Origin: Bacteroidaceae bacterium | GTDB taxonomy: Bacteria > Bacteroidota > Bacteroidia > Bacteroidales > Bacteroidaceae | Length of the DNA stretch: 61,116 bases | Direction of reading: 5' to 3' | NCBI GenBank assembly: GCA_963634425.1 | Contig: CAVHCL010000128.1 | Coordinates: 8,751 to 69,866 of the forward strand | Shown here: positions 25,096-57,196 of the stretch, in pieces | How positions within the stretch are numbered: position 1 is the first letter of the stretch | How the letters are laid out: every line of letters begins with the position of its first letter | Program-made: the position numbers and the translations under genes | Notes under the pieces: generated by a model | What the model was told of the DNA's origin: nothing | The model's input: the letters and a program-made list of their open reading frames with translations, nothing else | Databases searched by the model: none

Positions 25096-25869
25096 ATGCA
25101 AGACAGACAACTCAACAGACGGCTATATTTCCGCGAACTCGCATACACCAGCGAACATTACTTCATACCTTACATCAGCCGTTTTATGCGTGTCGGCGCG
25201 CCATTGCGTGTTCTTGAGATAGGATGTGGCGACGGCGGCAACCTGCTGCCGTTCGCACGTTTGGGATGCGAGGTCACGGGGTGCGACATGGCTGAGTGCA
25301 GAATATCGGACGCAAAGCGTTTCTTCCAGGAAGAATCCGCCGACGGCACTTTCATAGCCTCGGATGTCTTCCTGCTCAAGGGGCTTGAACGGCGTTTCAA
25401 CCTCATCATCTGCCACGACGTGATAGAGCACATCCTCGACAAGGGAGAATTCATGCGCAAGTGCAAGTCGCTGCTGCAGCCCGGCGGTGCCATGTTCATG
25501 TCGTTCCCGGCATGGCAGATGCCTTTCGGCGGACACCAGCAGATATGCAGAAGCCGACTGCTCTCACACCTCCCCTTCTTCCATCTGCTGCCCGCACCGC
25601 TCTATTCACGTATACTGAGAATGGGTGGCGAGAACGAGGGATGCATAAAGGAGTTGTTGGACATCAAACAGACACGGTGTCCCATAGAACTCTTCGAGAG
25701 AAGCATCCCCGACTGCTTCGAGGTGGCAGACCGCACCTCGTGGCTCATCAATCCGCACTATAAGGTGAAGTTCGGACTCACTCCGCTCCGTCTCCATGTT
25801 CCGTTTTGTGCCGTGCCGTACCTCCGCAACTTCATAACCACCTCGGTGTTCTATTTTTTGAGAGGATAG
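25096..25869 (+). CDS. Class I SAM-dependent methyltransferase
   Basis: Motif I VLEIGCGDGGN, followed by an acidic residue after beta-2 (VTGCDM), then ICHDVIEHI. Confidence 0.8.
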   Translation: MQDRQLNRRLYFRELAYTSEHYFIPYISRFMRVGAPLRVLEIGCGDGGNLLPFARLGCEVTGCDMAECRISDAKRFFQEESADGTFIASDVFLLKGLERRFNLIICHDVIEHILDKGEFMRKCKSLLQPGGAMFMSFPAWQMPFGGHQQICRSRLLSHLPFFHLLPAPLYSRILRMGGENEGCIKELLDIKQTRCPIELFERSIPDCFEVADRTSWLINPHYKVKFGLTPLRLHVPFCAVPYLRNFITTSVFYFLRG

Positions 25870-25873
25870 AAAC

Positions 25874-25926
25874 TCTAGAGAACCTAGAAGTTCTAGACTT
25901 TCTAGAACTTCTATAAAATCCATAAA
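25874..25926. repeat. Phased 9-bp palindrome array #1 (6 units)
   Basis: CTAGA/CTATA/CCATA cores start at 25876, 25885, 25894, 25903, 25912 and 25921, an exact 9-bp period. The 8-mers are CTCTAGAG, ACCTAGAA, TTCTAGAC, TTCTAGAA, TTCTATAA, ATCCATAA. The array begins 5 nt after the stop at 25869. Confidence 0.9.
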
Positions 25927-25927
25927 G

Positions 25928-25953
25928 GCTGGAGGCTCTGTAGCCTCCAGCCT
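25928..25953 (+). terminator. Perfect stem-loop after the methyltransferase gene
   Basis: GGCTGGAGGCT (25928-25938), loop CTGT, AGCCTCCAGCC (25943-25953): an 11-bp GC-rich perfect stem. There is no clear U-tract, which is common in Bacteroidota. Confidence 0.6.
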
Positions 25954-26093: not shown

Positions 26094-26124
26094 TTTGGAG
26101 GAAAGGGATTTTGTCATATCTTTG
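26094..26124 (+). promoter_or_regulatory. Bacteroides-type promoter P1 for the pilus-like locus
   Basis: TTTG at 26094-26097, a 19-nt spacer, then TATCTTTG (TAnnTTTG) at 26117-26124. The first ATG of the downstream gene lies at 26181. Confidence 0.55.
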
Positions 26125-28818: not shown

Positions 28819-30549
28819 ATGAAAAAACATTATTTGTATCTTGCCACAGCACTCGCACTCGCAAGCTGTGCAAACGACGACTACTTAGACGGCACATCTC
28901 CGTTGTCTACAGGCGACGGCTACATCTCCTTCAGCATGAGCACGCCAAATGCGACACGTGGAGACCAACAGCTTACTGGTAAAGACGCCGCAATTGCCCT
29001 CAACAACGAGTTCATCGTGTGGGGTGAGAAGAACGAAGCAGACAACACTGCAACTAAAACAGAAGACCTCGTTTTCAAGAACTACCGTGTGCAGTATAAA
29101 GAAAATACCAACAACACTACTACCAGCAACACCGCAGGTTGGGAGTATGTGGGTCTCACACCTTATGAAAGCAGCAAAGTGTCGCCCTCAATCCATAAAA
29201 ACGCGAACGCTAAGCAAACCATCAAGTATTGGGAGTTTGGTAAGACTTATACTTTCACGGCTGTGTCGGCATATCAATCGGACATTACTAATGGTAATGT
29301 GAAGATAACAAAGACAGAGGGTTCAACAACCTTGGCTTCCAAAGTCAAGGGCTACACCATCGTGCTGACCCAAGGTGCTAAAGCGACGGATATTTTTGTT
29401 GCTGACCGCAAAGAGGTTAAATATGAAACAACTGCACAGTCCGTTTCTGCTGTTCAGATGCAGTTCCGCAACTTCCAGTCAAAGATACGCTTCGGTTTCT
29501 ACGAGACTGTTCCTGGATACAATGTGCAGATTACCGGGGTGAAGTACGACACCAAAGCTGATTACGTAACAACTGCTTTCGGTGTTGACGGCAAGTTCGT
29601 ACAAGTTCCTACAGGGACAAGCGACAACGACAAACTTACTTACACCGTTACCTATGACACTAACAACAAGCCTGTTGTGGATGTCACAACAGGGAGTAAC
29701 ACAGCGACAAAAAGCTATGAGGAGTTCGGCAGCTACGTCTTCAGCAAAGACCTTGGTACAACTGCAACTTCTGATGTTGTCTATGATAAGGAGAATGGTG
29801 CATACAGCTTAATCCTGCCCAATACCAACAATGATACTCCGATGTCATTTACGGTTTCCTACAAGTTGATTTCCGAGGACACAGGGGAGGAGATAACTGT
29901 CACAGACAAAAAAGTGACGGTGCCCGCCGCATACTGTAAGTGGAAGCCCAACTTCGCCTACACCTATCTCTTCAAGGTTAGCGACCAATCAACAGGTCTC
30001 TACCCCATCACCTTCGACGCTGTCGTAGAGGCTGACGAAGTTAGCAAACAAGAGACAATTACCGAAGTCGGCGAACCAAGCATCACTACGTTTGCCGTTA
30101 AGTCTGATGGCAAGACAGTCGTAGTAGACCAAGATGAATATCAAGGCAATAATACTATCTATGCCACAATTAACACGGATGGCGGTATGACAAGCTCTAA
30201 CACCAAACTTTATACGGTGACAGCGACGAGCTATGCTTCTGGCATCACCGAGGCTTCAGTTGCCAACTGTCTGGCACACGGAAAGAAAGGCAATGATACA
30301 GCTCCGACTACTTGGACAGCAACAGACCTCAACAATGGTGTATTGACGGTAACGGCTGTTACGATCAGCTCAGATGGAAGTTCGACACCAGCGTTCGTAG
30401 ACAATGTTCCTTCTGAAGATGGTAACGGAACACGCACAGTCAACGCCCTCAAGTGGACTGCAACTGCAAGCACTGTTTACGCAGTAGAGTACACCAATGG
30501 TGGTAACAAGACCTACAAGATTGTTAAGGTAGGTACTGCTGAGCAATAA
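28819..30549 (+). CDS. Type V pilin (fimbrillin/Mfa1-like lipoprotein), candidate major stalk subunit
   Basis: Lipobox LALASC. N-terminal strand plus Arg site GYISFSMSTPNATR/GD. Motifs shared with the next two genes: FRNFQSKIRFGFYETVPGY and YCKWKPNFAYTYLFKVSD...GLYPITFDAVV. Confidence 0.75.
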   Translation: MKKHYLYLATALALASCANDDYLDGTSPLSTGDGYISFSMSTPNATRGDQQLTGKDAAIALNNEFIVWGEKNEADNTATKTEDLVFKNYRVQYKENTNNTTTSNTAGWEYVGLTPYESSKVSPSIHKNANAKQTIKYWEFGKTYTFTAVSAYQSDITNGNVKITKTEGSTTLASKVKGYTIVLTQGAKATDIFVADRKEVKYETTAQSVSAVQMQFRNFQSKIRFGFYETVPGYNVQITGVKYDTKADYVTTAFGVDGKFVQVPTGTSDNDKLTYTVTYDTNNKPVVDVTTGSNTATKSYEEFGSYVFSKDLGTTATSDVVYDKENGAYSLILPNTNNDTPMSFTVSYKLISEDTGEEITVTDKKVTVPAAYCKWKPNFAYTYLFKVSDQSTGLYPITFDAVVEADEVSKQETITEVGEPSITTFAVKSDGKTVVVDQDEYQGNNTIYATINTDGGMTSSNTKLYTVTATSYASGITEASVANCLAHGKKGNDTAPTTWTATDLNNGVLTVTAVTISSDGSSTPAFVDNVPSEDGNGTRTVNALKWTATASTVYAVEYTNGGNKTYKIVKVGTAEQ

Positions 30550-30556
30550 ACTAAAC

Positions 30557-30606
30557 CGTTCCGCAAGGAACGTCAAAGCCGGGTGGGGTTCGACTCCCCT
30601 CCCGGC
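30557..30606 (+). terminator. Two tandem hairpins after the first pilin gene (attenuator or terminator; the second is tRNA minihelix-like)
   Basis: Hairpin 1: CGTTCC-GCAA-GGAACG (30557-30572, GNRA loop). Hairpin 2: GCCGGG-T-GGGG [TTCGACT] CCCC-T-CCCGGC (30578-30606), with a T-loop-like 7-nt loop. Confidence 0.55.
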
Positions 30607-30653
30607 TACAAGAAACGCTGCTACCTCCCTCCCACAAAAACGCTAAGCCGTTA

Positions 30654-30685
30654 TTTGTGAGAATTACTGGATAGTCGTATCTTTG
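30654..30685 (+). promoter_or_regulatory. Bacteroides-type internal promoter P2
   Basis: TTTG at 30654-30657, a 20-nt spacer, then TATCTTTG at 30678-30685. This is the same -7 octamer as P1. It lies 132 nt upstream of the ATG at 30817. Confidence 0.55.
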
Positions 30686-30720
30686 CAGCGAATAAAAGGA
30701 TAATGGGTGGCACTGTGCCG

Positions 30721-30808
30721 CCATAGAAGCTATAGAGAATCTATGAGATCTATAAGTCCTATAGGCTATAGAAAACCTAAAAGCATAGAGGCACTATAGA
30801 GCCTACAT
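30721..30808. repeat. Phased ~9-bp palindrome array #2 (about 10 degenerate units)
   Basis: CTATAG-type cores (CCATAG, CTATAG, CTATGA, CTATAA, CTATAG, CTATAG, CTAAAA, CATAGA, CTATAG, CTACAT) start near 30721, 30730, 30741, 30750, 30759, 30766, 30777, 30784, 30794 and 30803. Spacing is 7-11 nt with a mean near 9. The array ends 8 nt before the ATG at 30817. Confidence 0.85.
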
Positions 30809-30816
30809 AACATGTA

Positions 30817-32823
30817 ATGTATAAGAGAATAGGAGTATATATATTGGCGGTGGGCCTGACGGCCTGTGTGGACGACTACTACAACGGGGGCTACTCTGCT
30901 CCCAACGGAGGAGGCATCTCTTTCGTCAATGCAGTCGTGCCTTTCACCCGTACCGGGAAGACCGGCAAGAATGCCGCCGATATGCTTGGAAACAGGTTCT
31001 TCGTCTATGGCATAAAGAACGAGAGCTTAGGCGCAGACGCTCTTGCCGCCGAAAACCTTGTGTTCCAAAACTACAAGGTGACGTACTCCGACGGCACCGG
31101 AGGTTCCTCCGTGGACAACAGCAGCGGATGGGGATATATAGGCAACGCCCTTTCCTACGACGAGGCTGCCAACCTGCGGGACAACATCGGCACTGCCGCA
31201 CAGGCCGTGAAATACTGGGACTACAATGCCGCCGACTATACCTTCTATGCGTTTGCCATCGCCAACAACGACCTTGAGGACGGCAAGATGAAGGTGACGA
31301 AGAACACCGGCAGCACCTTTGACACCTATCGCAACGGCTACACCATAGAGATGGCTGCGGATGCCGAGCCTACAGACCTCTATCTTGCCGACCGCATACA
31401 CATAACGGCATCCTCCAACACCGACCAGACACAGAGCAACGCCTACGGCGGCAAGGTGAGCTTCAACTTCCGCAACGCCATGGCGAAGGTGCGCGTGGGG
31501 ATGTACGAGACCGTCCCCGGCTATTCGCTCACCATCGACGCATTCCGCACTGTCGACGAGACAATGCCTTCGTTCGGTGACATGACGACGGAGAACACCG
31601 GTCAGTTCGCCGCCAACCTGAGCCACAACACACCGTACAAGGAGGGTACTATGACAGTGACGTACACAGACCGACACGCCACGGAAGAGAACATACCAGT
31701 GGTCGTTTTCGGCGGGACGAAGGACAATGTGCTCACTCTCGGCGACAACCTCCGGCAAGGGACGGTGCTCGGCGACAACGCCGCCGACGTGGTATACGAC
31801 AAGAGCGACGACGGCTATACCGCCATATATCCCATGGAGTACAACGCCCACAGTCTGAAGGTGAAGATGGACTTCACCCTGAAGTCCAAAGTGGGCGAGA
31901 CCATAGAGGTGAGGAACGCCACGGCGGAGGTGCCGGCCGCCTACTTGAAGTGGAAACCGGGATGTGCCTACACCTACATCTTCAAAATCAGCGACCAGAC
32001 CAACGCCACCGTAGGCAGCCTCACTGGGCTCTACCCCATAACGTTCGACTGCGTGGCAGTCAGCGACGGCACAGGAGAGGAGGAGAAGATATCCAACACA
32101 GGCAATGATGTCAACATAGTCACCATGGGCTACAACCCCGACTTGCGGCTCGTCACCGTGGGGCATGATGACTACAATGCCGGCAACACCGTCTATGCGT
32201 CATTCGTGGACAACAACACCCTCGTGACCGCCACATCGTCAAACACGAGACTCTTCGTCGCCACCACCACCGACCCAGAGAACTACCCCGTCACGCAAGC
32301 CAACGTGTCGACGTACATCAACAGCTACACCGCCGACAACACCCTCGTGGACCAACCTGTGACGGTGTACGGGCAGACTATAGCCGACGACGACTTCGTG
32401 AACGAGGTGCCTATGGGCGACGGCACCGATGCCATGCGTTCCTTGCCGGCAGTGAGATGGACGGCGGAGAGACGCGTCTACGCCGTGGAGTACACCACCT
32501 CGGACTCCAAGAGATATTACAAGATAGTGAAGGTGGACGGCTACGACGGACAGACCTCCGGCACGCTGTCGCTCAATCCTGCTGTAATAGAAAACTCCGG
32601 CGGCACAATAACACCGTCACTCACTGTGGACGGCATCACGGCATCCAATGCCGATGTCACGTACGCCCTCGACGCCGATGTGCCGTCGGGAGTGACCGTC
32701 AACGACAACGAGTCGGAGAATGTAACCATCACGGTGCCCGGCCAGACAACGGCAGGCACCTACACCATCATCGCCACCTACAACCGCAGGACGTACAGGA
32801 CATCCTTCAAGGTAAACCAGTAG
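30817..32823 (+). CDS. Type V pilin (fimbrillin/Mfa1-like lipoprotein), paralog 2, with a C-terminal Ig-like extension
   Basis: Lipobox GLTAC. GGISFVNAVVPFTR/TG. FRNAMAKVRVGMYETVPGY. YLKWKPGCAYTYIFKISD...GLYPITFDCVAV. Confidence 0.75.
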   Translation: MYKRIGVYILAVGLTACVDDYYNGGYSAPNGGGISFVNAVVPFTRTGKTGKNAADMLGNRFFVYGIKNESLGADALAAENLVFQNYKVTYSDGTGGSSVDNSSGWGYIGNALSYDEAANLRDNIGTAAQAVKYWDYNAADYTFYAFAIANNDLEDGKMKVTKNTGSTFDTYRNGYTIEMAADAEPTDLYLADRIHITASSNTDQTQSNAYGGKVSFNFRNAMAKVRVGMYETVPGYSLTIDAFRTVDETMPSFGDMTTENTGQFAANLSHNTPYKEGTMTVTYTDRHATEENIPVVVFGGTKDNVLTLGDNLRQGTVLGDNAADVVYDKSDDGYTAIYPMEYNAHSLKVKMDFTLKSKVGETIEVRNATAEVPAAYLKWKPGCAYTYIFKISDQTNATVGSLTGLYPITFDCVAVSDGTGEEEKISNTGNDVNIVTMGYNPDLRLVTVGHDDYNAGNTVYASFVDNNTLVTATSSNTRLFVATTTDPENYPVTQANVSTYINSYTADNTLVDQPVTVYGQTIADDDFVNEVPMGDGTDAMRSLPAVRWTAERRVYAVEYTTSDSKRYYKIVKVDGYDGQTSGTLSLNPAVIENSGGTITPSLTVDGITASNADVTYALDADVPSGVTVNDNESENVTITVPGQTTAGTYTIIATYNRRTYRTSFKVNQ

Positions 32824-47000: not shown

Positions 47001-47475
47001 CGACGGCACAACGGCGGCAGACGGCGACGGTGGCTTCTACAGCGTAAGCTCGTGGGACACCTCCGACTGGCATCTCGCCACCGGCGACAAAGCTCGCATC
47101 TGGACAGGCGAGGGCATCTTCACACAGACCGCAGCCGTAGCGGACAAAGAGGAACTCACCTTCCATCGCCCGGTGTACAACCACACGACACGCGCCAAGG
47201 GAACGGGAGCTCCGTCCGTGCGGCACAACGTGCGCCGCTATGCCGCAGAGCCCGACATTGACGACGCACAGGGCGACATAGAGATACGGGTGTACGGCCA
47301 CGAAGTGTACATAAGCGGACTGCAAGGCGGCGAGGAGATAGACATCTACGACGCTTCCGGACGGAGACACGCCTCGGCAAAGGCGCAAAGCAAGCAGTAC
47401 AAGACTGTAGTAACCGCCGACGGAGTGTACATAGTAAAAGTAGACGGCAAGTTGAAGAAAGTGATAGTCAGATAG
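35086..47475 (+). CDS. Giant (4129 aa) secreted multi-module right-handed beta-helix protein with a T9SS C-terminal sorting domain
   Basis: Signal peptide MQRKIVGLLIFTILSLLCPPGGAAQ. Seven modules each open with a cap like (I/V)(Y/F)V..G.G.SW..P...LQ.AI and close with D.GAYE. Many GGG(V/I)Y and N-N-x-A beta-helix rungs. The last ~70 aa, ...EIDIYDASGRRHA...ADGVYIVKVDGKLKKVIVR, look like a type A T9SS CTD. Confidence 0.85.
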   Translation: MQRKIVGLLIFTILSLLCPPGGAAQEVRYVSKGGAYSNDGKSWEKAKSNIQDAINDLVDNGLTGEVWVAHGIYTPTESTESTGGSTLYMSFKIPAGISVYGGFKGDETSKEAREENATKSFGNVYKYSTILSGDLSSSAEFTWNTTRERWETSFYGNCYHVVFFATNGFDATGRAKPNGGGKQSALLEGCVIEHGNAYNSDLSGRPHNAYGGGVYMVEGSCLKNCLVRQCVSYRDGGGVYMDGGGYIEHTAVMDCQTVGIGISYGMGGGVCMDGPDTYSASYTPMVMRRSGVFGCVGRMGGGVAIVANDTDGDNKYKIACSAVVVANNTATNEAGGIYMNSGGVITQATVVNNKCNGAGIITNGIANGRSAGVYCRNNAIVSNSVLWGGVCSANNDIQYATSRSGSGTELSPNIMYTSLSQSDYTDWSGVIKDNVTKLSKYNSSADGTAYASEGYPLFSNPTPNAGYVSSAQRTQFIYDGTSSIADGVTLYDNMGVEVNADNIKLGTTYYTDVAMQTVAVEGRDYTYLGAAYDFQPLSRSSLNHRGVLTIDLDRYGRTPAYEIDKDVMGKSFTPRPTLGAYLTTHTTIEPQTVTASGKTTVNFYVAPNDDGGTEYTSIGSSWNQPIRFFSDAMAFIKEQSYPSATTVNVYVKEGTVNNTNTSAVGRIRTTDIGIPGNVNIYGGYSSDNTGTDLDKRSPTACLTIITGDAQDDYALNVSHLLTFDGTENTVLDGFAIRNANARGTEKIEGTPVTVGAAMTFNNATGVKIRNCSVAGHTASEGAAADMTDSEVYFENCIFHNNESRTLDADGNAVSNTGNIVVRTGSTASFSHCNFIRNVGNAIDSYGTVKVVNSVFYGNMSEPLEDTRGNEDKALTAVRLFNGGTFTGDHNLFDSKSAAFIANNSLDGTNEAILTYAFSSTSTTYPRFMNPTKNAGVSPSGNVTYYGKATSFMPHNNNPMVNRASTVDSDGAETDDHAEWGTDMTGTVTRDYGGLPDIGAIENHESAVADEGEKAYPDGQKAYGKVLYVRNYRNDDGTVDNSTTDRDGYSWSRAINGNATYSGVNGFQYALNMANTLWNADQTTQHEVHVGAGTYTANLTWKEGVNVKGGYPAEGNPGENERSISNTKAEHMTVINGNGNGRVLTQYANFSTAAVFEGFTIQDGYTTGTNYGAGVYLLSGGTLKNCLVQNNTYSASSRNTNYCQGGGGIYMNDGSIVKNCKIMKNYVYANNYQSFFGGAGVYAAGGTLINSLIVENTTDSRKNNLLGAGLYIYQTSSLYNCTIAYNVAVSAGPDGDYAATGGVWDAAAKHQGGGKYINQSRFYNCIIWGNYANGRTAENLIQVGMSGFSDQAGNTNDAFHTCYSSAWSKTYASDDASDVNKVMIVGTGTGSASNYLAFYNNSKANEPFVRDDYDNTDYSLKATATQCINKGSEYQELTNLDITVDINGEERIQDCTIDKGAYEYNQSLDINPEIITTTGSTNNKRVFYVTPDGRGTASADSPANAACASKLQKVLDAAGRYKYNYPSDTVIVKVANSASLAAAGENFQYYACRTTDEGDQSARVWSIMVPRGVEVWGGYTDTYTSDDDNGFYTKDSAGNTADNRDITGNPTYFDSYYYNKSEKQYTYTYHVVTFTDRVFDGEGYPYEEGDTIGEPSTWKEGDKYMSMSEKTADRAVIDGLFVTGGNADAQVPNSANATADINQYGGAAIVTDYAHVRNCIVRGNNGTYGGALALTHNALVSGCLIDQNTADYGGAVYMFEEGTTLSDGTVVDTKSSGTAVDENMAHVYTSTIVNNTANKQGGGIWFGQSSDDMNIRVNSSVIWQNNSVNQANVSGLYNATKAADDPLTTIEFYPFAFCAVQNLLVPGLNNIQLGNLNSSGVRFAAKGNADDDHNTIAKESTDDDTHGKYDDFGYYALTDYSSLIRNGMPSEQYSALVTSAGLSAFDFAAEDRLVSTGRNRTSIEMGARALDKILDSRQLMLRIFVARSEDINMDAAQTMMNLAATAAEGSDEEYYSQEGSSFAFPMQSLQDALDYIIEARSLNGVKTGLNQEGSNNLPFEICLGRGTYYPRHNIDNVHINSSGNSFAIPEGVSVYGGFAIDNPDREKSYFGRYYKEGDNPAGYTNVLSDNVKSVVETDNDTLVSIGGSDGYAIDQLPISKLKPRRRTLDNNGNNIIEPWEFENQTILSGDVSYQAANGSYHVVTLVADQNVTGMLPKAAEPTSDALDYSVYTTANGEGSYAYEQGQDIVLDGLQIVSGHALHYTEGSTDYTNMYNHYLGGGIFVNGNRYCDDYNKKTSLAAEGFGTIEYKHSGISESVGYRNIPLIIANCKFTNNTAGGGGALCSNGLVNIYSSVFEQNRSVSGCETLLDINGDEKEVAYAGIGGAVLATYQLRVYNTLFANNEAYDERLNEKPTEFKRMLADETRSLLGGAGGAVYVGRFGFFHILNCDFVRNRANAYPVMFTMNPNRDFTDGRNGGIGEGNPLRPTTTYYNQFVNTLFWGNDINDEMSKKYDSVNPLFKFNSRLFCNYAPGEFSGIYSAPDFTDDTKIPSDLTALDGNSTSRHSDFGETAWYCAYEYGRGTTPHNITDMRNLGFLPHVYARDMIHSEGEKKGADTYQNCNIRLSSENSDLEGPNFVNPSLTAGYDGYYESADWSPARLSNLVDNGAGKIAQEITLENEVYKTSFKEYTSENIPSRSIYYNNGNADGYTTETVGDYDTEGVYTTTRVLNTYDRNRTYLPVGEMTYMESSATGQALYRISYDPNPTHNQTYIDIGVYEYPHTELQYTTTGDEVDILWVSPFEKPDNGLPNGSAWSQPTSDLQRAIETLLASRNGHRKEIRLMDGPFTPIYNIEDKLAFTIDTKAINESVTMPVKAYEEDGKTVKEYDTGKGVVSLTIKGGYSRELNNVYNPLEYPAVIRQQARSHATSDRWNYLFYIHDGTQRYGYNTYNEANGYGNYADSDGEGYSKTVNTIPLHIDGVTLVNNQANKDVNGAAIFYGDLADDITASTPAHVSINTYYTDAEKSEESEEPTRYYNRTVDKYYTDATYQVVSETETPFVSYKYAETTANKIVISKSKIMNSGSYADDDHSTCAVYIGKNGGNALLYNNVMHSNTGNPLVSAVPTTIVNNTYALNKGRVDLNGENTRVSSLVINQDDNDGNYDPDGPMLAPHHQRRAPSAATGSAIFNSVFWRNNNDGVQFVLPGFVSAQKSGSIFSHNAVTGYSTDVSDYSLPDIPDQNYNVGLSDENSDIINGPNFADPKQEATLADDIELRNFTLLPSLRLLNKGNNTLYNDNVIKNPDTYNIYDLAWMTTTRTDAGGEQRFVYDIDLGAYEYQNNLNRIIYVNPNVSATGLGNSWADPVAYGNLQAAIDLAAVYHVNNVDEEAYVFVKGAGTSSAGLHLGESVIMRDGVSVYGSILPTRTEDCPYTTTSSNGIREYAQTEIDKYVATVTAERGGLADPTAGTTTVSGIKTPSSTTFNNTNAEIVSVVDGFAVTATNRKNPSGTVAQPVINVQPFNSDGRVALRNIIVHGNDLSAQRLTDLATVDNALIYEALFRDNKVDDTGCHLRIGRNGYGVNLTVEGRTVGADGNVTYNGTDSKDGDHIFNSLVNYTGHPATENTLSGYNYKVSAPNLNYQLTEMSTHIDQCEAVNPMKDVPTLKQFINYDTDRDLLGNLRLLRGVSTEDKVDRGAFETWRVDQDVVCTSKDADGNLTNYYPHVGSVVYIMQGNSLVMEQYETQAAEGVTTQTSGTALRPAYLLVQDGASLYGNGNAVSVSYVGVERETSKDGSMVSLPYAMQYGGTDIASNGTGAPAYSADGVLTLSADKAGTYSYNGVGRSAWNSTFYNTASPQWTELTDVTTDSNKGILYKSAADKLYRFTAQGDADNMDSYVYTETAGEISKTVELQQYDDRVSTDGAADFTEKEDMGWNCIGLPWLVSDYDTSAKETLSGDSHYNMDIPHTLWLWYDGKTYLDGTTAADGDGGFYSVSSWDTSDWHLATGDKARIWTGEGIFTQTAAVADKEELTFHRPVYNHTTRAKGTGAPSVRHNVRRYAAEPDIDDAQGDIEIRVYGHEVYISGLQGGEEIDIYDASGRRHASAKAQSKQYKTVVTADGVYIVKVDGKLKKVIVR

Positions 47476-47478
47476 GTT

Positions 47479-47522
47479 TTCTAGAAGTTCTAGAGACTCT
47501 AAAAAATCTAGAAGATCTATAA
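47479..47522. repeat. Phased 9-bp palindrome array #3 (5 units, plus a degenerate unit over the stop codon)
   Basis: The 8-mers TTCTAGAA, TTCTAGAG, CTCTAAAA, ATCTAGAA and ATCTATAA start at 47479, 47488, 47497, 47506 and 47515, an exact 9-bp period. The array fills the 60-nt gap between the giant gene and the next gene. Confidence 0.9.
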
Positions 47523-47535
47523 AAACAACAAACGT

Positions 47536-55916: not shown

Positions 55917-57116
55917 ATGAAAATATTGGTTCTCAACTGCGGAAGCAGCAGTATAAAATATGCTTTGTACAACATGGACGACCATAGCGTCGTCACGAGC
56001 GGAGGAATAGAGAAAATTGGTATGCCCGACAGTTTCATCACAGTGAAGCTCAATGGGGAGAAGTACCGTACGGAACGCCCCATAGAGGAGCATACGGCAG
56101 GTGTGCAGTGGATCTTTGAGGTGCTGACGCAGGGCGAACACGCCGTGCTCGGGAGTCTCGGCGAACTGGATGCCGTGGGACACCGCATGGTGCACGGAGG
56201 CGAGAAGTTCAACAAGAGCGTGCTGCTGACACCAGAGGTGATGGAAGCCTTCGCCGCCTGCAACGATCTGGCTCCTCTCCACAACCCCGCCAACATAAAA
56301 GGTGTAAACGCTGTGAAGGCTCTACTGCCCGACATCCCCCAGGTGGGAGTGTTTGACACGGCTTTCCACCAGACCATGCCGGACTACGCCTACATGTATG
56401 CGGTGCCCCACGACCTGTACACCAAGTACCACGTGCGGCGCTACGGCTTCCATGGCACCAGCCACAGATACGTAAGCCAACGTGTGTGCGAGTTTCTCGG
56501 CATAAGCCCCGAGGGCACGCGCATCATCACCTGCCATATAGGCAACGGTGCCAGCATAGCGGCAGTGAAGGACGGCAAGTGCGTGGACACGTCCATGGGG
56601 CTCACCCCTCTGGAGGGACTCATCATGGGAACACGCAGCGGCGACATAGACGCCGGTGCCGTGACGTTCCTCATGGACAAGTTGGGACTGGACACGAAAG
56701 GCATCTCCAACCTGCTCAACAAGAAAAGCGGTCTCGCCGGTATAAGCGAGCTCTCAAGTGACTTCCGCGACATACTGGCAGGTGTGGCAGCGGGCAACGA
56801 CGAGGCCCGTCTGGCCAAGGAGATGTACACATACCGCATAAAGAAGTACATTGGCGAATACGCCGCCGCCATGGGAGGAGTGGACATCATACTCTTCACA
56901 GGCGGAGCCGGCGAGAACCAGTGGGAAGTGCGCGAGGGAGCCACAAGCGGACTGGAGTTCATGGGAGTGAAGATGGACGACGAGAGAAACCGTGCGTGCC
57001 GCGCCACAGAGGCCATACTCTCCGCTGACGACTCCAAGGTTACCGTCTGCTGCATCCCCACGGATGAAGAGCTGATGATAGCCATGGACACAGAGGCCAT
57101 CGTCTCCGGCAAATAA
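55917..57116 (+). CDS. ackA: Acetate kinase
   Basis: MKILVLNCGSSSIKY, GHRMVHGG, RYGFHGTSH, HIGNGASI, LIMGTRSGDID, IPTDEE. Confidence 0.95.
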   Translation: MKILVLNCGSSSIKYALYNMDDHSVVTSGGIEKIGMPDSFITVKLNGEKYRTERPIEEHTAGVQWIFEVLTQGEHAVLGSLGELDAVGHRMVHGGEKFNKSVLLTPEVMEAFAACNDLAPLHNPANIKGVNAVKALLPDIPQVGVFDTAFHQTMPDYAYMYAVPHDLYTKYHVRRYGFHGTSHRYVSQRVCEFLGISPEGTRIITCHIGNGASIAAVKDGKCVDTSMGLTPLEGLIMGTRSGDIDAGAVTFLMDKLGLDTKGISNLLNKKSGLAGISELSSDFRDILAGVAAGNDEARLAKEMYTYRIKKYIGEYAAAMGGVDIILFTGGAGENQWEVREGATSGLEFMGVKMDDERNRACRATEAILSADDSKVTVCCIPTDEELMIAMDTEAIVSGK

Positions 57117-57196
57117 CTATAGAAGGCTTAGAAGCTCTAGTGGCTCTAGAATACCTAGAGTTTCTATAGCTTCTAAGCCTTCTATAGCCTCTACAA
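57115..57196. repeat. Phased 9-bp palindrome array #4 (9 units)
   Basis: CTATA/CTTAG/CTAGT/CTAGA/CTAGA/CTATA/CTAAG/CTATA/CTACA cores start at 57117, 57127, 57137, 57146, 57155, 57164, 57173, 57182 and 57191 (spacing 10, 10, then 9 six times). The first unit overlaps the ackA stop codon. Confidence 0.9.

Follow-up and report, generated by a model that had tools for sequence, protein, structure and literature searches.

The window analysed here is a 61,116-nt stretch of the genome of a Bacteroidaceae bacterium (contig CAVHCL010000128.1 of assembly GCA_963634425.1), which contains a type-V-pilus-like operon comprising DUF3575 and DUF5119 genes, further lipoprotein genes and a 4129-aa open reading frame (ORF). 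Inside this operon, two pilin-like lipoprotein genes are separated by an intergenic region that carries a run of short CTATAG-type repeats, referred to below as array B (30721..30808, +). The upstream gene (28819..30549, +) encodes a pilin-like protein of 576 aa, and the downstream gene, pilin 2 (30817..32823, +), encodes a pilin-like lipoprotein of 668 aa with the signal peptide MYKRIGVYILAVGLTAC. Just after the upstream gene lies a tRNA-like minihelix (30577..30607, +), consisting of a 12-bp stem with the T-loop GGTTCGACTCC followed by ACAA. It is followed by a promoter motif of the Bacteroidetes type, P2 (TTTG-N20-TATCTTTG, 30654..30685, +), and by a small GC hairpin, GGUGGCA-CUG-UGCCGCC (30706..30722, +), located between P2 and the array.

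Array B consists of ten degenerate CTATAGRRN-type units arranged with a quasi-period of 9 nt interrupted by indels, and has no CTAG core. The original prediction described about ten CTATAG-type units, and all of them were found, in the same order, starting at 30721, 30730, 30741, 30750, 30759, 30766, 30777, 30784, 30794 and 30803, i.e. with spacings of 9, 11, 9, 9, 7, 11, 7, 10 and 9 nt. The 61-kb window contains 17 exact copies of CTATAG, compared with 6.45 +/- 2.34 in shuffled sequences (2.6-fold; 0 of 100 shuffles reached 17), and four of these copies (30730, 30759, 30766 and 30794) fall within 70 nt in array B. Hexamers with no more than one mismatch to CTATAG number six in its 88 nt, compared with a window-wide mean of 0.27 (sd 0.57), which is the highest density in the window, tied with array D at 57110. 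Six ATAGRR motifs accompany the four exact CTATAG copies, and CTAG is missing, unlike in the three sister arrays of the window. The sequence is 41% A and 36% GC, with stop codons in every frame. Since Tandem Repeats Finder (TRF) scores only a part of it (30725-30754, period 11, 2.9 copies, score 39), and a repeat search reveals instead a 22-nt higher-order unit in three copies (30722, 30758 and 30784), array B is a real but degenerate array with indels.

The position of the array relative to the predicted internal promoter was also given correctly: the TAnnTTTG box occupies 30678-30685, the first array unit follows at a distance of 36 nt, and 8 nt lie between the last unit and the ATG at 30817. 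P2 has the features of promoters of the Bacteroidetes primary sigma factor, namely a -33 TTTG, a -7 TAnnTTTG, a spacer in the range of 17-21 nt and a gene downstream on the same strand. The full motif TTTG-N17-21-TAnnTTTG has only four matches on both strands of the window (122 kb), two of which directly precede the first gene of the operon (26094) and pilin 2 (30654). The block containing P2 (30611-30696) is 86-90% identical in the closest orthologous locus, L123, whose pilin 2 is 80% identical at the amino acid level. The placement of these rare matches and the conservation of the block suggest that P2 is probably a genuine promoter. Because the geometry is right and P2 is probably real, the transcript very likely contains array B as the larger part of its 5' leader. 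A public protein (P0001, 659 aa) starts nine codons later than ATG 30817, at TTG 30844; however, the start MY(K/R)xIG is conserved in the orthologues L123, L124 and L324, which favours ATG 30817 as the predicted start. The 12 nt preceding this ATG are conserved in L123.

The array had been proposed to act in RNA through alternative hairpins, which finds no support in folding: no significant fold was detected relative to shuffled sequences, with z -1.8 for the array and z -1.4 for the whole leader. Initiation of translation in Bacteroidetes is independent of the Shine-Dalgarno sequence, and array B, as an A-rich, weakly structured RNA that ends 8 nt before the ATG, should permit rather than inhibit it.

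The minihelix is the left edge of an intergenic slot, the content of which differs between homologous operons. In the window the slot contains P2 and array B. In L123 the segment 30611-30696 and everything from 30805 on are kept, while 30697-30804, including the small GC hairpin, is entirely different, its place being taken by 351 nt with a 90-aa ORF. As L123 is conserved on both sides and wholly different between, the array segment is, to judge from this alignment, an indel-variable insert rather than a constant feature of the pilin-2 leader. CTACAT (30803-30808), the last unit, probably falls outside the variable array, because it lies within the block conserved in L123. Neither P2 nor the array occurs in L324, L326 and L124, where pilin 2 is about 61% identical, and the slot of L324 and L326 contains a second small hairpin and nothing more. 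In L130, L136 and others, the slot is occupied by a four-helix-bundle suffix (4HBS) gene with arrays. The 90-aa ORF of L123 (L123 100-450) is antitoxin-like and appears to be driven by the same P2 block; it is followed by an apparent C-terminal remnant of a VapC toxin, identified by eye.

Four arrays with a 9-nt period, A to D, are present in the window. Arrays A, C and D are cleaner than B, are found beside non-pilus genes and are composed of TCTAGA plus three bases. Array A (25867..25919, +; TAGAAACTC TAGAGAACC TAGAAGTTC TAGACTTTC TAGAACTTC TATAAAATC) opens with the TAG that terminates a methyltransferase gene, and can form a perfect 13-bp hairpin. Array C (47473..47525, +) comprises five to six units of the TCTAGA type; it opens with the terminating TAG of the 4129-aa ORF and takes up the 60 nt that separate this ORF from the next ATG (47536). 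Array D (57117..57193, +), a mixture of CTATAG, CTAGA and CTAAG units, directly follows the TAA stop of the acetate kinase gene and has 33-nt arms that are 88% complementary (-48 kcal/mol). The head-to-tail period is exactly 9 in A and C, and 9 with indels in D; in B the mean spacing is 9.1 but the range is 7-11. A single substitution separates CTATAG from CTAGAG, the common start of a unit, and TRF detected no intergenic array with an unrelated core in the window. Arrays A, C and D each fold as a single long hairpin (z -3.4, -3.4 and -9.9). A hairpin or terminator was nevertheless rejected as the defining property of the arrays: permutation of the spacers in 83 arrays gave a mean z of -0.2, and arrays occur inside obligate operons. 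All TAG triplets of A, C and D share the frame of the upstream stop, suggesting a translation-linked device, but such a stop ladder was dropped as a general rule, the frames being distributed 30:27:20 among 77 arrays, with 12 in-frame cases forced by the array itself supplying the stop.

Family-type arrays were found at at least 120 genome loci by a scan for an exact pattern (CTAGAN4 three times and CTA, one genome per species) that is biased towards CTAGA units. About three quarters of the matches listed belong to gut or rumen Bacteroidales, isolates included; the others comprise a few Victivallales, Verrucomicrobia and Kiritimatiellia, and some unrelated coding repeats. The statistics given below rest on about 110 arrays from the matches listed, and gene contexts throughout are those of simple ORF calls. 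The unit of the family is T-CTAG-A followed by an AT-rich spacer (TCTAGAAAA in a clean array), or roughly N-TAG-R-R-NNN, which corresponds to CTATAGRRN in array B. CTATAG arrays of period 9 were also found elsewhere, in genomes that carry CTAGA arrays as well (L074 and L117). Adjacent units share 2.88 of the five variable positions, compared with 2.05 for random units. At one locus, ten strains with near-identical flanks have 8, 10 or 12 units, and at a second locus the numbers are 7 and 5; the length differs between strains by steps of 9 or 18 nt, i.e. by whole units. The unit-number polymorphism looked for as a sign of a tunable element thus exists in the repeat family; for array B itself the comparison covers one strain, a second copy (L001) being identical. 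The arrays do not belong to miniature inverted-repeat transposable elements: at different loci they share only the core and the period, and not internal sequence, terminal inverted repeats or a target-site duplication. The scan of viral contigs was uninformative, as the pattern matches many unrelated repeats there, giant-virus bins included. CTAGA arrays of period 9 occur in gut and rumen bins of Victivallales, Lentisphaeria, Kiritimatiellia and Verrucomicrobia (L042, L051, L052, L078, L079 and L080), and one may ask whether they have spread horizontally within the gut habitat.

The arrays are located almost exclusively in transcribed spacers, either just after stop codons, within operons or in 5' leaders: 68 lie between co-directional genes, 14 between convergent and four between divergent ones. 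Their distance from the preceding stop codon is 0-64 nt, and 9-50 nt separate the last unit from the next ATG. Array B, between P2 and the pilin-2 ATG, is likewise in a transcribed non-coding spacer. In L066, the 52 nt that separate the two genes encoding methylmalonyl-CoA mutase subunits are occupied by an array, and arrays must therefore be read through. The neighbouring genes are diverse housekeeping genes; a link to particular gene functions was not supported by Pfam analysis of 59 downstream and 92 upstream neighbours, in which nothing was enriched besides the four-helix-bundle family.

This exception leads to the 4HBS gene, to which the arrays are tightly linked. Two arrays in different genomes flank an ORF of about 225 aa with a PF05635 four-helix-bundle domain, named in NCBIfam 'four helix bundle suffix domain-containing protein' (TIGR04258 and TIGR02436). 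Its homologues number thousands; most are from Bacteroidales, and many lie on contigs of 1-2 kb. In the array-selected loci, five of six 4HBS homologues have an array immediately adjacent. An unbiased set of four homologues, chosen by protein similarity alone, has the same layout in all four cases: a -7 box or the end of an upstream gene, a TCTAGA array of 5-12 units, 19-45 nt and the 4HBS ATG. Among metagenome loci with pilin homologues, 12 contain a 4HBS gene, with long period-9 arrays beside or near it; these arrays are built from other unit types (ATAGGGCTT, ATAGGACTA, CTGGGGCCG and TATAAGTCC) in up to 28 copies. Two clades of 4HBS proteins can be distinguished, clade I with CTAGA units and clade II with ATRGGRCYW-like units, a correspondence confounded with phylogeny. 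The AlphaFold2 model of the protein (predicted local distance difference test score 77) is a four-helix bundle of the type encoded by the S23 intervening sequence (IVS), with a long C-terminal helix; a fold search with this model returned S23-family bundles only (2RLD and 2GSC), and a sequence search of the PDB gave no meaningful match. Two further observations concern individual loci. In L346 (1086-1875), which is one of the four loci of the unbiased set, a 4HBS gene with a 10-unit CTAGA leader array is located between cas9 and cas1, and in L342 (986-1023) and L343 (978-1041) a second polymorphic repeat, with the 13-nt unit AAAGGCTGTGATA in 2.9 and 4.9 copies, respectively, precedes the promoter of the 4HBS gene there by about 100 nt.

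We consider it somewhat more probable than its negation that array B is a worn, non-coding copy of this fast-changing 9-nt repeat, a solo relic carried in the pilin-2 leader rather than a pilus-specific switch. Array B is similar to the period-9 array class of Bacteroidales and probably belongs to it. Arrays of this class would grow and shrink through slippage or unequal recombination, and would spread or persist together with the 4HBS cassette. P2, array B and the ATG are probably the leftover of a 4HBS-type insertion into the slot between the minihelix and the pilin-2 signal peptide, because this slot is empty in some related operons and in others holds the remnant of a toxin-antitoxin pair or an array-flanked 4HBS gene. 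The same hosting of cassettes by the slot, and a layout equal to that of 4HBS leaders, are the reasons for reading array B as a decaying solo array. Today it would form an A-rich, weakly folded spacer of about 90 nt in the leader of the P2 transcript, with no dedicated role in pilus expression; any effects would be exerted via the length or accessibility of the leader, or via a factor that recognises the family. The original prediction of an element controlling the distal pilus genes fits poorly with the presence of similar arrays beside unrelated housekeeping genes, both in the window and at about 100 other Bacteroidales loci, and with the lack of the array segment in the nearest as well as in more distant orthologues.

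Several points weigh against the interpretation of array B as a decayed family copy. Its membership rests on resemblance, i.e. the period, the TAGRR core and the single substitution between CTATAG and CTAGAG, and the cassette-relic step rests on layout only. No 4HBS gene or pseudogene remnant was detected in the 61-kb window, and no similarity of the P2 block to the promoters of 4HBS genes was found. The assignment of array B to the ATRGGRCYW type was rejected, since the weight matrix derived from the pilin loci gave three hits in and around it, no more than in some random stretches. The preservation of a short core across families and phyla hints at selection, and hence function, for intact arrays, and a decayed copy might keep part of the family function. 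The restriction of the comparison to a single strain and the crude ORF calls noted above belong here as well.

Among known systems, the repetitive extragenic palindromes (REPs), bacterial interspersed mosaic elements (BIMEs) and REPtrons of Proteobacteria resemble the arrays in being short, partly palindromic, high-copy and lineage-specific units in intergenic transcribed spacers after stops or inside operons, in their capacity to form hairpins (arrays A, C and D) and in an associated small gene flanked by repeats. However, the array units are head-to-tail 9-mers and not palindromes of 20-40 nt in alternating orientation, the copies share only a 6-nt core and change by unit number, and the linked gene encodes a four-helix bundle instead of a Y1 transposase of the REP-associated tyrosine transposase (RAYT) type. 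No transposase domain was present among the 25 most frequent families in each of two sets of flanking proteins (151 proteins), which was not an exhaustive search. The IVS of 23S rRNA provides another parallel: it also carries a four-helix-bundle ORF of the same superfamily (S23p; PF05635/TIGR02436) in an insertion bounded by repeats capable of pairing. In contrast, the array and 4HBS insertions are in mRNA spacers and not in rRNA helices, their bounding sequences are direct tandem arrays, and the 4HBS protein has an additional suffix domain (TIGR04258) and a coiled coil.

The main rival explanation, which we hold to be unlikely, is that array B is a functional RNA platform. UAGRR repeats in the P2 leader would be bound by a multimeric RNA-binding protein, with 4HBS as the obvious candidate and UCUAGAAAA as the tandem unit taken as its candidate target, and binding beside the start codon would tune the translation or stability of the distal pilus mRNA, by analogy with the recognition of (G/U)AG repeats by TRAP and HutP. 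The 4HBS protein is related to the pentameric nucleic-acid-binding four-helix bundles Avd and S23, and its predicted model resembles 2RLD and 2GSC. Arrays lie in the transcribed leader of the 4HBS gene at all four unbiased loci and are rare in divergent promoter regions, their core is conserved across taxa despite the fast turnover of units, and array B ends only 8 nt before the ATG. Two other arguments are double-edged: the spacers show an excess of A in the sense direction (36 arrays against 12), but this matches the general AT skew of transcribed strands, and the co-variation of array type with 4HBS clade is subject to the phylogenetic confounding mentioned above. The platform would further need a reader, whereas no 4HBS gene was found in the 61-kb window, and a site, whereas array B no longer has the core or a regular phase and has no counterpart in orthologues; the literature search found no binding data for the 4HBS family. 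The analogy to TRAP and HutP extends to 5' leaders in which motifs centred on UAG recur at a fixed distance up to a point near the start codon. The array period is 9 nt, in contrast to 5-6 nt for TRAP and 7 nt for HutP, with 6 nt between the TAG triplets compared with spacers of 2-3 and 4 nt, respectively, and arrays also occur far from start codons. No homologue or domain of MtrB or HutP was seen among the window ORFs scanned.

A distinctly less probable explanation is that slippage in this leader gave rise to array B as an independent, local minisatellite with no relation to the TCTAGA arrays or to 4HBS cassettes, the shared period and TAG core being coincidental. The absence of CTAG, the weak weight-matrix result, the higher-order structure of three copies of about 30 nt and the lack of sequence similarity to 4HBS leaders would all be expected of such a minisatellite. 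Coincidence is more difficult to reconcile with four TAG-centred arrays of 9-nt period in one 61-kb window that has no intergenic array with an unrelated core according to TRF, with the combination of CTATAG and CTAGA units in array D, with the CTATAG arrays in genomes also bearing CTAGA arrays, and with the location of array B in the same slot as the arrays of distant homologous operons. The family as a whole shares tandem units, whole-unit differences between strains and decayed array edges with variable-number tandem repeats (VNTRs) and minisatellites, including contingency loci. Ordinary VNTRs are locus-specific, whereas the period-9 core recurs at many loci in many genera; moreover, unlike contingency loci, a period of 9 cannot shift the reading frame, so that the arrays do not represent classical phase variation.

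The original prediction also considered a DNA operator or roadblock, in which a protein coats phased repeats downstream of P2 and blocks RNA polymerase; we regard this as very improbable. TCTAGA and CTATAG are perfect palindromes, as expected for dimeric proteins binding to tandem sites, and a location just downstream of a promoter suits a roadblock. Arrays of the family, however, are found inside obligate operons, where they must be read through, and mostly downstream of genes rather than at promoters, and array B is absent in orthologues; its spacing of 7-11 nt destroys helical phasing and its palindromic core is lost, which speaks against a phased operator. The tandem 8-bp palindromes AGACGTCT of the MetJ metboxes offer an analogy, in that tandem short palindromic units with a TCTAGA core could potentially bind a repressor cooperatively, but the array period is 9 and not 8, most arrays are downstream of genes or within operons, no ribbon-helix-helix gene is linked to them, and array B has no palindrome.

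It is just as hard to believe that array B is a former N-terminal extension of pilin 2, a repeat-encoded signal peptide now closed by stops, since although arrays run in frame to the lipobox Cys in L130, L132, L134, L136, L137, L141, L153 and L175 and the first codons of pilin 2, TATAAGAGA ATAGGAGTA, are unit-like (ATAGGAGTA scores 8.5 bits on the pilin-locus matrix), the best frame of array B reads I-E-A-I-E-N-L-stop, which is not hydrophobic, all frames contain stops, and MY(K/R)xIG is conserved as protein in array-less orthologues.

A broader and more speculative idea, in which we place limited belief, is that the 9-nt arrays and the 4HBS gene form one undescribed system. A multimeric protein would read (U/T)CUAGA or AUAGGAC units, one per subunit, and would either regulate array-bearing transcripts genome-wide, including its own, or move and maintain the promoter-array-gene cassette via recombination between arrays, leaving solo arrays such as B as footprints. 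If this were true, array B would identify pilin 2 as a gene that the system once targeted or still targets in residual form. A full-text search of the literature found, within the literature covered, no description of the arrays, of the role of the 4HBS family or of the minihelix, and the repeat family, its gene partner and the neighbouring tRNA-like hairpin appear undescribed.

If array B is a decaying family copy, as we favour, it should not be treated as a tailored regulator of the pilus operon, and P2 and the tRNA-like hairpin are better candidates for setting the level of the distal pilus proteins. More generally, a very common class of repeats in gut and rumen Bacteroidales (Prevotella and relatives), variable in length between strains and located inside operons, seems to have been overlooked. 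These arrays probably break assemblies, many 4HBS genes being on contigs of 1-2 kb. They also give a first genomic handle on the large family TIGR04258/TIGR02436, a relative of the diversity-generating retroelement protein Avd; if the 4HBS protein does read the repeats, it would represent a new type of module for recognising RNA or DNA, and might serve as a tool. Separate leads on the expression of type V pilus genes come from the lipoprotein signal peptides encoded by repeats and from the minihelix following the pilin gene.

The minihelix, with the invariant T-loop GGTTCGACTCC and a stem of 11-12 bp, is present at about 40 homologous loci, in every case on the same strand as the pilin gene; examples besides the window are L324 (9878-9908) and L130 (4479-4505). 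Compensatory changes affect nine of the 11 pairs, and ACCA or ACAA and then an A-run follow on the 3' side. It may be a substrate of RNase P or of the CCA-adding enzyme that sets the 3' end of the pilin mRNA. Rfam has no match at or above the gathering threshold in the window; the matches in 30500-30900 are all sub-threshold, the best being mascRNA-menRNA on the minihelix (E = 0.42).

In rumen pilin operons (L136 5306-5470, L137 5419-5573, L130 5222-5330, L141, L153, L175, L132 and L134), 9-nt arrays are in frame with the downstream lipoprotein gene. They encode a long (M/I)G(L/P/R) repeat with many in-frame ATGs that ends at the lipobox Cys, and the signal peptide is therefore made of tandem repeats. 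In L130 (4572 onward), L141 and L153 the 4HBS ORF, the array and the downstream lipoprotein gene form one continuous frame with no stop codon between them, an apparent in-frame fusion.

In an unclassified bacterium (L017), near-identical CTAGA arrays at 137-181 and 1972-2016 bracket a 424-aa ORF without a Pfam match, and share the GC-rich inverted flanks GCCGTCGCC ... GGCGACGGC. In the window, a GC-rich hairpin, GGCTGGAGGCTCT GTAGCCTCCAGCC (25927-25952), directly follows array A, with no T-run 3' of it on the plus strand; the operon promoter motif at 26094 is about 165 nt farther downstream. Finally, the upstream pilin-like gene has a GC content of 46%, compared with 57-60% on both sides, and the operons of L324 and L326 have two different genes (624 and 554 aa) in its position. 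The low GC content and the different genes in orthologous operons point to replacement or horizontal acquisition of the gene for the putative major subunit.
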